The notes: generated by a model not told the origin, from the sequence alone. Counted from the stretch's first letter, positions 4,107 to 7,299 are shown. The stretch is DNA of 7,299 nucleotides from a virus (IMGVR_UViG_2639763115_000004:1-7299); one strand, 5' to 3'. Translations and numbers: made by a program.

Positions 4107-4703
4107 ATGACCACTATTACCAAAGAACGTATTGAATTGTTCATTAAAAATCCGCTTGAAAACGGACTTACCCGTGGCGAACAAATGGAACTGGCACGAA
4201 TTGCTCTGGCATCGCTGCAACGCGAACAGATTCGCCACGAGCATGCCAAATGGTCTGACTCCACATTTGGCTGCGTTGGCCCCATTGGTCCGCTGAAACA
4301 TCTCTCAAAAGAGGCACTGGAAGCCGCAGCCGAACCAGACGATCTTAGCGAGTGGGCTGATATGCAGTTTCTGTTGTGGGATGCACAGCGCCGTGCTGGC
4401 ATCAGCGATGCTGAAATTACCGCTGCTATGGAAGATAAATTGAAGATCAACATGGAGCGCCAGTGGCCTGAGCCAAAAGATGGTGAGCCTCGCTTGCACA
4501 TTAAAGAACCCGGCAACTCTCCGGTAATTCCGGATGGTTGGGTTATGGTGCCGAAGGAGTTAACCCCGGAAATGATGAGAGCCGTTCAGATTAGAAGTGA
4601 GCTTGGAGGGTATGCCACTTCCAATCTATCTGGTGCATACAATATGTTTTCTGAGTTCTGGAATGTTGCTGTCTCAGCTGCGCCTAAGGTGGATGATTTA
4701 TGA
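4107..4703 (+). CDS. Putative MazG-like nucleotide pyrophosphohydrolase (DUF550-like N-domain, DUF551-like C-terminal region)
   Basis: AAGGAG at 4095-4100; segment EALEAAAEPDDLSEWADMQFLLWDAQRRAGISDAEITAAMEDKLKINMERQW resembles the all-alpha MazG/NTP-PPase motif (EExxE ... ELGD-like ... KL.xNxxR). Confidence 0.55.
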   Translation: MTTITKERIELFIKNPLENGLTRGEQMELARIALASLQREQIRHEHAKWSDSTFGCVGPIGPLKHLSKEALEAAAEPDDLSEWADMQFLLWDAQRRAGISDAEITAAMEDKLKINMERQWPEPKDGEPRLHIKEPGNSPVIPDGWVMVPKELTPEMMRAVQIRSELGGYATSNLSGAYNMFSEFWNVAVSAAPKVDDL

Positions 4704-5002
4704 ATCTATATCGCTGCCCATTCTGTGGTTCCACTGTGCTTAACATCGGATACTCATTCAGTATCAGAGGGAAAATGCGCTATGTGTCATGCAAATGTGG
4801 TGCCCAAGGACCAGAAAAACGAACTAAATCTGAAGCGATTTCTTCATGGAATAGTCGAATGAAAGTATGGGTTTATGATCCAGAAACCATATTAAACGCT
4901 GAAGAGCGCAGGAGAACGGAAGTCTATATTCATAACCTTAATGAAGATGGATTTACACCAGTGCTTGTAAAGGCTACTCCGCAGGAGGTTAACCATGGCT
5001 AA
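4700..5002 (+). CDS. Lar-family putative restriction-alleviation (anti-restriction) protein with a C-terminal extension
   Basis: ATGA overlap with the upstream stop; N-terminus MNLYRCPFCGSTVL...CKCGAQGP...AISSWNSR has the CPFCG plus CxC plus A..WN.R signature I associate with Lar-family zinc-ribbon proteins. Confidence 0.55.
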   Translation: MNLYRCPFCGSTVLNIGYSFSIRGKMRYVSCKCGAQGPEKRTKSEAISSWNSRMKVWVYDPETILNAEERRRTEVYIHNLNEDGFTPVLVKATPQEVNHG

Positions 5003-5064
5003 CCTGCAACTTGCCGTCAAAGGTGAATAACAATCCTCGCACTCGCGGGGATTTCTTTTATCTG

Positions 5065-5090
5065 AACTCGCTACGGCGAGTTTTGTTTTA
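5065..5090 (+). terminator. Putative intrinsic terminator after the Lar-like gene
   Basis: Stem aactcgc (5065-5071), loop tacg, stem gcgagtt (5076-5082), then T-rich ttgtttta. Confidence 0.45.
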
Positions 5091-5102
5091 TGGAGATGAT
5101 AA

Positions 5103-5270
5103 ATGCACTTCCGAGTCACAGGTGAATGGAATGGAGAACCATTCAACAGAGTTATCGAAGCAGAGGACATCAACGACTGCTATAACCACTGGATGATATG
5201 GGCGCAGATAGCGCATGCAGACGTAACCAATATTCGAATTGAAGAACTGAAAGAACACCAAGCCGCCTGA
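5103..5270 (+). CDS. Small hypothetical prophage protein (55 aa, MHFRVTGEWNGEPFNRVIEAEDINDCYNHWMIWAQIAHADVTNIRIEELKEHQAA)
   Basis: GGAGA 7 nt upstream of the ATG at 5103; followed at once by a terminator hairpin. Not in the ORF track (under 60 aa). Confidence 0.5.
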   Translation: MHFRVTGEWNGEPFNRVIEAEDINDCYNHWMIWAQIAHADVTNIRIEELKEHQAA

Positions 5271-5283
5271 TGGCGGTTTTTTA
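5261..5283 (+). terminator. Putative intrinsic terminator
   Basis: ccgcc (5263-5267), loop tgat, ggcgg (5272-5276), then tttttt (5277-5282); overlaps the stop codon of the 55-aa gene. Confidence 0.55.
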
Positions 5284-5293
5284 TTGCCTGATT

Positions 5294-5308
5294 TGCAGGT
5301 TCGATTCC
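5294..5308 (+). other. tRNA-derived fragment: 15 nt identical to the T-arm 5' half of tRNA-Arg(CCU) argW (tgcaggttcgattcc)
   Basis: Exact 15-nt match to recalled argW, with degenerate similarity a few nt upstream; the rest of the tRNA is absent. Confidence 0.4.
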
Positions 5309-5327
5309 CTATTCGGAGATAGCACTC

Positions 5328-5528
5328 ATGCAACACGAACTACAGCCTGATTCACTGGTTGATTTGAAATTCATCATGGCCGATACTGGCTTCGGTAAAA
5401 CCTTCATCTACGACCGGATTAAGTCCGGCGACCTGCCAAAAGCCAAAGTTATCCACGGACGAGCAAGATGGTTATATCGTGACCATTGTGAATTCAAAAA
5501 TAAGCTCTTAAGCCGCGCTAATGGGTAA
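5328..5528 (+). CDS. torI: AlpA-family excisionase / recombination directionality factor (TorI-like, 66 aa)
   Basis: SLVDLKFIMADTGFGKTFIYDRIKSGDLPKAKVIHGRARWLY fits the AlpA/Xis winged-helix pattern; length and position next to an argW attR core fit KplE1 TorI as I recall it. GGAGA 8 nt upstream. Confidence 0.7.
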   Translation: MQHELQPDSLVDLKFIMADTGFGKTFIYDRIKSGDLPKAKVIHGRARWLYRDHCEFKNKLLSRANG

Positions 5529-5544
5529 AATAGCGGGTAAAATA
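5523..5544 (+). repeat. Tandem direct repeat gggtaaaata x2 (5523-5532, 5535-5544), candidate RDF or integrase arm-type binding sites
   Basis: Two exact 10-bp copies at a 12-bp period spanning the torI-like stop codon, about 60 bp from the att core. Confidence 0.35.
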
Positions 5545-5602
5545 TTTCTCACATCTAAAAAATATCATTCCAATCAATCCCCTGCCGCGCCAAGTAGATG
5601 TC

Positions 5603-5617
5603 TGCAGGGGACACCAT
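5603..5617 (+). other. Putative attR core: terminal 15 nt of tRNA-Arg(CCU) argW (ctgcaggggacacca)
   Basis: Exact match to the recalled argW 3' end including CCA; no intact tRNA upstream, so this is a duplicated att core rather than a gene. Confidence 0.6.
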
Positions 5618-6000
5618 TTATCCTTCCAACGAAATCCACCTTCCCCGCGTAAAAGTTGGGTTTGGCAGCACACTTGCCCTAAATCTACTCATTTTCCCTG
5701 CAACAGGTTGAAATCTCAGCACTGTGCGGCGATGACTAAACAGCCCCGGGCCTGGCAATGTATTCATCACACAGAATCCTGATCGCGAAATCTGGCTTGA
5801 CTCGATACTTCACTCCGCAATGCATTCCTTGATGGATTAGCAGGCCCGTGATACACGGGACAGGTCGCTGAATTACGACAATTTCCTGGAAATCAGCGAA
5901 CCGCGTATCCTGAGTACATTTGAGCGACTGTTCCAGAACATGAATGAGGCGTTTGGATTAGGCGATTATTAGCCGCGCTAAGCATTTTGGTATTATTATT

Positions 6001-6040
6001 TTCCGGTTGAGGGATATAGAGCTATCGACAACAACCGGAA
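6001..6040. repeat. 9-bp inverted repeat ttccggttg / caaccggaa with a 22-nt spacer, 12 bp downstream of the cscB stop
   Basis: Perfect reverse-complement arms at 6001-6009 and 6032-6040; no U-tract on the cscB transcript side, so not a canonical terminator. Confidence 0.3.
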
Positions 6041-6051
6041 AGAGTTTACGT

Positions 6052-7299
6052 CTATATTGCAGAAGGTACAGGCGTTTCCATCACCATTTGCTCACGCTTT
6101 TTACTCAGGAAGAAAATGCCAAATAACAACATCAGGCAGACAATACCCGAAATTACGAAGAAAACCGTCTGGTAACCTGCATGGTCAAAAAGTATTCCAG
6201 TCGGCGTTGAAAGCAACACAATCCCCAACGAACTAGCAATTTGAAAACCAATCAGAAAGATCGTCGACGACAGGCGCTTATCAAAGTTTGCCACGCTGTA
6301 TTTGAAGACGGAAATGACACACAGTGGAACCTCAATGGCATGTAACAGCTTCACTAATGAAATAATCCAGGGATTAACGAACAGTGCGCAGGAAAGAATA
6401 CGCAACGCCATAATCACAACACCGATAAGTAATGCATTTTTTGGCCCTACCCGGTTAACAAAGAAAGGAATAATGGCCATGCACAGCGCTTCGAGTACAA
6501 CCTGGAATGAGTTGAGATAACCATACAGGCGCGTTCCTACATCGTGTGATTCGAATAAACCTGCATAAAAAACAGGAAAGAGCTGTTGATCAAAAATGTT
6601 ATAGAAAGACCACGTCCCCACAATAAATATGACGAAAATCCAGAAGTTTCGATCCTTGAAAACTGCAATAAAATCCTCTTTTTTTACCCCTCCCGCATCT
6701 GCCGCTACGCACTGCTGATCCTGATATTTAAAACGCATGTTGATCATCATAAATACAGCGCCAAATAGCGAAACCAACCAGAAGTTGATATGGGGACTGA
6801 TACTGAAAAATATGCCAGCAAAGAACGCGCCAATCGCATAGCCAAAAGATCCCCAGGCGCGCGCTGTTCCATATTCGAAATGAAAATTTCGTGCCATTTT
6901 TTCGGTGAAGCTATCAAGCAGACCGCAGCCCGCCAGATACCCCAAGCCAAAAAAGAGCGCCCCCAAAATTAGACCTACAGAAAAATTGCTTTGCAGTAAC
7001 GGTTCATAAACGTAAATCATAAACGGTCCGGTCAAGACCAGGATGAAACTCATACACCAGATAAGCGGTTTCTTCAGACCGAGTTTATCCTGGACGATGC
7101 CGTAGACCATCATAAATAGAATACTGGTAAACTGGTTGACCGAATAAAGTGTACCTAATTCCGTCCCAGTCAACCCTAGATGTCCTTTCAGCCAAATAGC
7201 GTATAACGACCACCACAGCGACCAGGAAATAAAAAAGAGAAATGAGTAACTGGATGCAAAACGATAGTACACATTTCTGAATGGTATATTCAGTGCCAT
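6052..7299 (-). CDS. cscB: Sucrose:H+ symporter, LacY-family MFS oligosaccharide permease (CscB-like, 415 aa)
   Basis: Complete 415-aa ORF with its start codon at the window edge; multi-TM hydrophobic protein whose N-terminus MALNIPFRNVYYRFASSYSFLFFISWSLWW and length match CscB as I recall it; clear LacY-family similarity. Confidence 0.8.
   Translation of the reverse strand: MALNIPFRNVYYRFASSYSFLFFISWSLWWSLYAIWLKGHLGLTGTELGTLYSVNQFTSILFMMVYGIVQDKLGLKKPLIWCMSFILVLTGPFMIYVYEPLLQSNFSVGLILGALFFGLGYLAGCGLLDSFTEKMARNFHFEYGTARAWGSFGYAIGAFFAGIFFSISPHINFWLVSLFGAVFMMINMRFKYQDQQCVAADAGGVKKEDFIAVFKDRNFWIFVIFIVGTWSFYNIFDQQLFPVFYAGLFESHDVGTRLYGYLNSFQVVLEALCMAIIPFFVNRVGPKNALLIGVVIMALRILSCALFVNPWIISLVKLLHAIEVPLCVISVFKYSVANFDKRLSSTIFLIGFQIASSLGIVLLSTPTGILFDHAGYQTVFFVISGIVCLMLLFGIFFLSKKREQMVMETPVPSAI

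Follow-up and report, generated by a model that had tools for sequence, protein, structure and literature searches.

The window, by which we mean the whole stretch of viral DNA that was analyzed (7,299 nt), carries, according to its ORF list, part of a lambdoid/P22-like prophage with the functions for immunity and replication and the early-left genes. Read from the left end, the genes encode a replication protein, a CII-like protein, a Cro-like protein and a LexA-family repressor, followed by early genes on the + strand, the last of which is torI. Two other products of the early-left operon have Pfam matches, namely a dATP/dGTP pyrophosphohydrolase domain in the product of 4107-4703 (E = 3e-42) and a Lar-like restriction-alleviation protein encoded at 4700-5002 (E = 8e-9). 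The recombination module is preceded by a small early-left gene of 55 aa (5103..5270, + strand), which shows 96-99% DNA identity in HK022, HK140, CUS-3 and many lambdoid phages and whose product has no Pfam match. This gene is ended by an intrinsic terminator, a GC hairpin with a T-run at 5260..5285 (+ strand) located by a terminator scan and RNA folding, and the T-run forms the left mosaic boundary of the torI module. Beyond it lie an exact 16-nt copy of a part of the tRNA gene argW (5293..5308, + strand; fragment A, hereafter the box), the Shine-Dalgarno region of torI, CGGAGATA, 5 nt past the box (5314..5321, + strand; placed by alignment of the leaders of nine lineages), and torI itself (5328..5528, + strand), which was assigned from its identity with K-12 TorI as the gene for a recombination directionality factor (RDF, or excisionase) that is also a TorR inhibitor. 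Two GGGTAAAA repeats at 5523-5530 and 5535-5542 (+ strand) were recognized by alignment as putative arm-type integrase sites in the P arm of attR. They are followed by the attR core, CTGCAGGGGACACCAT (5602..5617, + strand), which comprises the 3’ end of argW and the crossover region and whose tRNA-derived part stops at 5616. A 43-aa ORF at 5521-5652 (+ strand) is the positional counterpart of HK620 hkaB and Sf6 gene 17; because it spans the att core into host DNA, its C-terminus is altered by the integration, and it is unlikely to be a genuine gene. The stretch of about 430 bp 3’ of torI is non-coding. After the host-side flank of attR (5618..6051, no strand assigned) comes the chromosomal gene that adjoins attR, the sucrose permease gene cscB (6052..7299, − strand), which was identified as an ORF, is annotated as cscB in Escherichia coli Ec-U18 and extends past the end of the window. 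ARAGORN found no tRNA gene in the window.

We compared the window with K-12 argW, gtcctcttagttaaatggatataacgagcccctcctaagggctaattgcaggttcgattcctgcaggggacacca (taken from NC_000913.3), by an exact-match scan and obtained two 16-nt matches, both on the + strand. The first, TTGCAGGTTCGATTCC at 5293-5308, equals argW nt 46-61 and covers the last two bases of the variable loop, the 5’ strand of the T-stem, the T-loop and, from the 3’ strand of the T-stem, its first two bases. The second, the core at 5602-5617, is argW nt 61-75 with a T added. In the tRNA these segments adjoin and overlap by 1 nt (C61); in the window they are 293 bp apart (5309-5601) with torI between them. Neither 16-nt pattern, even with up to two mismatches, occurred in 200 dinucleotide-preserving shuffles, and in 300 shuffled windows no argW match exceeded 13 nt, a length reached in 2 of the 300; both matches are exact and beyond chance. 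The alignment and the shuffle controls thus bear out the initial annotation, which had described two argW fragments, contiguous in argW, split around torI. Its coordinates, 5294-5308 and 5603-5617, located both fragments correctly but left each of them one base short at the 5’ end. Two more argW-like strings on the − strand, TTGCAGGTTC and TTGCAGGTT (2863-2872 and 5001-5009), lie near ORF ends; with 9-10 nt they are inside the chance range of the shuffle test.

The downstream fragment belongs to a known attachment site. KplE1 is bordered by a duplicated 16-nt core of the sequence CTGCAGGGGACACCAT (PMC2951348), and the 17-bp att site given in the Kapi1 paper is the same 16-nt core plus one base. 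The core at 5602-5617 is this published KplE1 core, in agreement with the earlier suggestion that the downstream fragment is an argW-derived att site at the right end of the prophage, and IntS would be expected to carry out the crossover there. The window TorI is identical to K-12 TorI at 66 of 66 aa and matches PDB 1Z4H, ‘Tor inhibition protein’ (E = 6.6e-43). In the window, torI lies directly 5’ of the core at the prophage right end, both on the + strand, with cscB beyond, and the GGGTAAAA arm-type repeats are found in the sequence between the torI stop codon and the core (5523-5530 and 5535-5542); the HK620 stretch homologous to these repeats is annotated as ‘repeat_region attP’. The functional attR used in vitro is 135 bp long and starts from a primer site that corresponds to window 5505-5524 (PMC3509656).

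The position of torI relative to the integrase gene follows from the same module. The attP of HK620 and Sf6 lies between the RDF gene and int (PMC2951348, PMC8787464), and the GenBank annotation of both phages places the attP core at the homologous position, between hkaC or gene 18 (the TorI homologue) and int. The Kapi1 paper likewise puts the attP of Kapi1, Sf6, HK620 and KplE1 between int and xis, which sends the two genes to opposite prophage ends, and the K-12 chromosome carries argW-intS at one prophage end and torI-core-dsdC at the opposite one. Given this xis-attP-int order, integration leaves torI at the end seen here and intS beside argW at the far end. K-12, HK620 and Sf6 have an IntS-type (P4-family) integrase beside an intact argW and a P’ arm with GTTCG TorI sites; the corresponding attL side of the window prophage (integrase, argW and P’ arm) lies outside the 7.3-kb window. 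The initial annotation had remarked that there is no integrase at this prophage end and had expected it at the attL end, as in KplE1. Indeed, the ORF list of the window contains no integrase ORF, its absence is explained by the normal layout of the KplE1/HK620/Sf6 module, and the K-12 (argW-intS...torI-core) and HK620/Sf6 (xis-attP-int) arrangements agree with an integrase at the far end. As far as the sequence can tell, the locus has every testable defining feature of the KplE1/HK620/Sf6 IntS-TorI module, which makes the finding as first described already known biology. We consider it likely that the region is a KplE1/HK620/Sf6-type attR in argW, tRNA-Arg(CCU), belonging to a P22-like/lambdoid prophage, and that the upstream fragment is a selected box in the torI leader and not a junction.

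We then compared the locus with its closest known relatives. The comparison with the K-12 attR of KplE1 (CPS-53), which had been proposed at the outset, gave an identical TorI, the same 16-nt core, the same arm repeats, the same T-arm fragment and the same argW site. The two differ 5’ of the terminator T-run, where K-12 has yfdT/ypdJ and the window has the 55-aa lambdoid gene, and in the host flank, which contains dsdC in K-12 and cscB in the window. They also differ directly after the core: positions 5618-5622 (TTATC) of the window are still those of the phage attP, giving 21 identical nt and thus an attP identity 5 nt longer than in K-12, where attR diverges immediately. Moreover, KplE1 is a 10-kb remnant, whereas the prophage in the window, of which the immunity and replication region is seen, appears to be fuller. 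HK620 (hkaC-attP-int), Sf6 (gene 18-attP-gene 16), Kapi1, N7 and HF4s share the order terminator-box-torI-arm repeats-core at 97-98% identity, but they carry an unrecombined attP, in which the core is followed by a P’ arm with GTTCG sites and int, while in the window it is followed by host DNA. This host flank (5618..6051) is homologous to the flank in another csc+ E. coli (L091), and csc+ strains have cscB and the csc sucrose regulon at the argW attR in place of K-12 dsdC/dsdX. We also considered the flank as the decayed P’ arm of an older element and rejected this after alignment and a shuffle test (p = 0.3-0.97).

Among complete E. coli genomes, none of which had a locus covering 80% or more of the window, the closest was Ec-U18, in which about two thirds of the window was matched at 96%. 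Ec-U18 has a full P22-like prophage that ends in torI and is followed by cscBKAR-dsdA-emrYK-evgAS, the chromosomal neighborhood of argW. In this genome (L120 27590-28030), an extra 345-nt gene with its own terminator lies between the T-run of the upstream terminator and a second copy of TTTTTTATTG. This moron-like insertion sits exactly at the left boundary of the torI module, and TTTTTTATTGCCTGATTTGCAGG...torI is kept as one unit despite the inserted gene. IME10 and HZ41 have a similar extra segment, recognized from matches in two pieces. Unsplit arrangements of torI, core and P’ arm, in some cases with int, were seen inside chromosomes (for example Hafnia, JGI 3300075143; L112 2501-4134) and also on records of 12.8, 29.7 and 39.4 kb (two of the last size) in the E. 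coli collection. Possible explanations are tandem lysogeny, integration by another route, or circular phage forms that were assembled as separate replicons.

The upstream 16-mer occupies the same place in K-12 KplE1, HK620 and Sf6, and it is also present in CUS-3. It was found in this position in 79 E. coli-type IMG/VR contigs representing 72 distinct sequences, a few of which have single substitutions inside it. A scan of IMG/VR with the 14-mer returned 80 viral contigs, in about half of which it stood in a torI leader; the others had it in unrelated tRNA genes or in coding sequence. To follow the fragment outside E. coli, we used loci of TorI homologues (60-100% identity), drawn from one genome per species, assemblies and three phage records. 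The 13-nt core of the box, CAGGTTCGATTCC (5296-5308 in the window, with GTTCG at 5299-5303), or a one-base variant of it was found about 30 nt 5’ of the torI start codon in ten lineages from at least nine enterobacterial genera: Escherichia, Citrobacter, Serratia, Pantoea sp. BAV, P. stewartii, Edwardsiella, Hafnia, a Cedecea-like contig, a metagenome-assembled genome (MAG) and the Erwinia phage Midgardsormr38. Across these carriers the box lies directly 5’ of the conserved CGGAGATA ribosome-binding region. It is absent from the loci of Klebsiella, Erwinia phage 49, Dryocola, Tatumella, Rouxiella, Rahnella, Cronobacter and Mixta and from four more distant Pantoea loci, although these have the same core.

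For the quantification of conservation, mean pairwise identities were taken over the 45 pairs of box-positive lineages. The 13-nt box reached 96.9%, compared with 84% for torI codon positions 1 and 2, 57% for codon position 3 and, in the 5’ flank of the box (20 nt), 33%. The box is thus more conserved than the torI codon positions and its own 5’ flank, which indicates purifying selection on the box itself. The three 5’ bases that extend the E. coli match to 16 nt (TTG) are not conserved in the other lineages, and the bases 5’ of CAGG vary by lineage (G, C or A) in a way that showed no connection with the variant of the core; the one additional host tRNA seen in this comparison was Proteus tRNA-Arg(CCU). 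A search of the literature for the 14-16-mers, with papers on attR footprints and torI transcription outside its reach, returned no description of the element; earlier annotations had treated it as a CII or ‘phage integration’ promoter (HK620, and pI in Sf6) or as an att core (CUS-3). The conservation of this T-arm-like box across genera is what remains new about the locus.

Two further loci differ from the common pattern. In Midgardsormr38 (L007 2485-2516), two tandem copies of the box at a distance of 16 nt (CAGGTTCGATTCCCGT and CAGGTTCGATTCCCAC) stand directly 5’ of the excisionase gene. In Proteus hauseri, a TorI-like gene without a box 5’ of it (L106 3001-3174) faces a tRNA-Arg(CCT) gene on the opposite strand about 1.3 kb away (4495-4567), a layout unlike the xis...int split; the T-arm of this tRNA is ACAGGTTCGATTCCTGT.

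The initial annotation had offered two origins for the upstream fragment, and neither found support. Acquisition of the RDF module through a second recombination at the tRNA in this prophage does not fit with an arrangement that is shared with KplE1, HK620 and Sf6: the 338-bp block 5280-5617 aligns without gaps at 96.4% identity to KplE1, 97.6% to HK620 and 97.0% to Sf6, implying that the arrangement is fixed in the module, free phages included. A nested or relic att site is opposed by the same fixed block, by the absence of a tRNA remainder and of junctions, and by the strong conservation. A split tRNA or an old core predicts TGCAGGGGACACCA-like sequence after GATTCC, and a decayed full att core 5’ of torI would show as a likeness of the sequence after the box to TGCAGGGGACACCAT; both were rejected, as the likeness was no better than in shuffles in nine of the ten lineages. 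The attP of most relatives carries its own T-loop-like TTCGATGT directly left of the core, reading TTCGATGT(A/C)TGCAGGGG where the tRNA has TTCGATTCCTGCAGGGG; the upstream box is therefore an extra copy and not a missing half. Fragment A itself has only C61 in common with the core. A chimeric junction probe for argW(1-61)-ctattcgg-torI had no match in a set of 5426 complete genomes of E. coli, roughly one in four of them with torI and the fragment. A second probe, for a fusion of fragment A and the core lacking torI (at least 80% coverage; best 8 of 14 phage records and best 8 of 13 E. coli genomes), yielded no such fusion among the matches listed, all of which were an intact attP spanning about 418-745 bp. 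Nor is the fragment a tRNA gene or pseudogene by the measures used, with no gene called by ARAGORN and no Rfam match; the E. coli box forms only 2 bp of the T-stem because its 3’ strand is CCCTA and not CCTGC. Across genera, the core of the box is more conserved than torI coding positions, contrary to what is expected of a scar in decay. That the box arose from argW long ago is plausible.

What, then, does the box do? Its sequence and placement suggest that it is probably a cis element of the torI leader, similar to a tRNA T-arm, with a regulatory function. The most likely mechanism, which we put forward tentatively and would not rate as high as an even chance, is that it serves as a protein-bound operator that gates RDF expression. 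The box lies in the torI leader, 3’ of the terminator and 5’ of the ribosome-binding site, is inherited together with the module and duplicates the argW segment next to the attB crossover site. Two candidate binders are the core-binding part of IntS, for which recognition of the same sequence at attB is a necessity, and TorI, whose recognition pentamer GTTCG stands at the center of the box. With either protein bound there, torI expression would respond to the state of the recombination proteins. In its specific form, the proposal is that a copy of an attB half-site in front of the excisionase gene, mimicking the target site, lets IntS, or TorI through GTTCG, gate RDF synthesis; we regard this as possible but doubtful. 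If true, the circuit of IntS and TorI known at PintS would gain a second arm, and xis-attP-int modules in general may be built in this way. In the KplE1 work (PMC2951348), TorI recognizes GTTCG/GATCG/GTCCG sites on attL and acts as a repressor of PintS, the promoter of intS has been mapped, and the control of excision is proposed to rest on RDF expression; given this proposal, a conserved box at the torI ribosome-binding region is a cheap and testable candidate for such control.

Several observations bear on the operator reading. The attP of most relatives retains TTCGAT beside the core, which suggests that the integrase reads the T-loop sequence; the box, a copy of this half-site, is about 210 bp from the GGGTAAAA arm repeats. 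There is also a parallel at PintS, where a small winged-helix RDF acting on short repeated sites represses the promoter of a recombination gene (PMC2951348), and the box holds the same GTTCG. However, the bases that flank the pentamer in the box, aG-GTTCG-A, do not fit the consensus (C/T)A-GTTCG-(C/T) derived from 35 P’-arm sites, and no promoter is evident: no sigma-70 promoter was detected at or near the box and no promoter-like site in 5000-5750. The 135-bp attR that supports excision in vitro does not contain the box (PMC3509656), and a few E. coli-type sequences have single substitutions within it. The absence of the box from many torI-bearing relatives with the same core indicates that it is dispensable for recombination. 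In the literature searched, we found no report of TorI or IntS binding to the torI leader. Because an intrinsic terminator lies just 5’ of the box, torI is probably reached by antiterminated read-through. Transcriptional regulation by an RDF is also seen with P4 Vis and P2 Cox.

Of the other explanations, the one that survives best sees in the box a neutral relic, left from an older attachment site or from captured tRNA DNA and kept by common descent only. The exact match to argW fits this, and so do the patchy distribution of the box, with losses in many lineages that still recombine at the same core, the excision that proceeds in vitro without it and the occasional point variants in the E. 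coli population. We nevertheless consider it unlikely, because across ten lineages the box has stayed 97% conserved while torI third positions have dropped to 57% and the 5’ flanks have become unalignable (33%), and because its distance to the start codon is fixed, it is duplicated in tandem in Midgardsormr38, and no decayed tRNA 3’ remainder follows it.

Alternatively, the box could act in the RNA, as a T-loop-like or anti-Shine-Dalgarno element of the 5’ UTR that controls torI translation or mRNA processing, either by pairing with the ribosome-binding site or by being bound by a tRNA-binding protein. It does lie at a fixed distance of 4-6 nt 5’ of a conserved Shine-Dalgarno sequence, the minimum-free-energy fold of the window pairs UUCGA with UCGGA of the Shine-Dalgarno region, and the leader hairpins of Citrobacter and Pantoea BAV are stronger than those with a shuffled box (p = 0.01-0.03). 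In seven of the ten lineages, including E. coli, the leader folds no better than with a shuffled box, though (p = 0.11-0.67), and one more, L094, is borderline (p = 0.05). The consensus fold reaches only -0.9 kcal/mol with four pairs and no compensatory change, the T-stem around the loop is not conserved, and there is no Rfam match at the gathering score. Taken with these points, a role in the RNA seems quite unlikely.

A third possibility is that the fragment is part of a CII-activated integration promoter (pI), with the TTGC repeats at 5284-5287 and 5293-5296 as the CII site. In the GenBank record of HK620, a ‘promoter, phage integration’ and a binding site of the ‘cII protein’ are annotated at positions homologous to these, Sf6 has pI annotated at the homologous position, a CII-like protein is encoded in the window prophage, and a CII family regulator is annotated in a relative. 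In lambda-type CII sites, the TTGC repeats are spaced by N6. The window has TTGC-N5-TTGC instead, and the sequence does not provide TTGC-N6-TTGC over a -35 element with a -10 element downstream; no -10/-35 pair was detected at all. Unlike the box, the TTGC repeats are not conserved outside Escherichia and Citrobacter. Such a promoter would, moreover, express the excisionase during lysogenization, intS is transcribed from a promoter of its own, and the HK620 annotation is older than the discovery of hkaC as an RDF. We therefore judge this explanation very unlikely.

The CUS-3 record (CP000711.1; L001 1714-1729, L004 1-16) treats the upstream fragment in yet another way, with TTGCAGGTTCGATTCC annotated as the core of both attL and attR. 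CUS-3 has the same 16-mer as the window, preceded by the same upstream gene and terminator, but there the 16-mer is taken as the att core, whereas the experimentally defined core differs. The record begins at the argW T-arm and stops exactly at the upstream fragment, before torI. NU14 (L111 1850-2050) is 100% identical to the last 330 bp of CUS-3 and continues directly into torI, the true core and dsdC, implying that the CUS-3 record was cut at the wrong repeat; it seems to lack the RDF gene and the real attR. A second att site at the fragment, active now or used until recently, with a 16-bp direct repeat delimiting the element, is thus extremely improbable despite the perfect 16-bp repeat with the argW T-arm at attL and the CUS-3 annotation, given the NU14 sequence, the predicted junction missing from all 5426 E. 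coli genomes, the intact attP with torI inside in the fusion-probe matches listed, and the published experiments that define CTGCAGGGGACACCAT as the duplicated core. The boundary given in the CUS-3 record can mislead the calling of prophage boundaries at argW.
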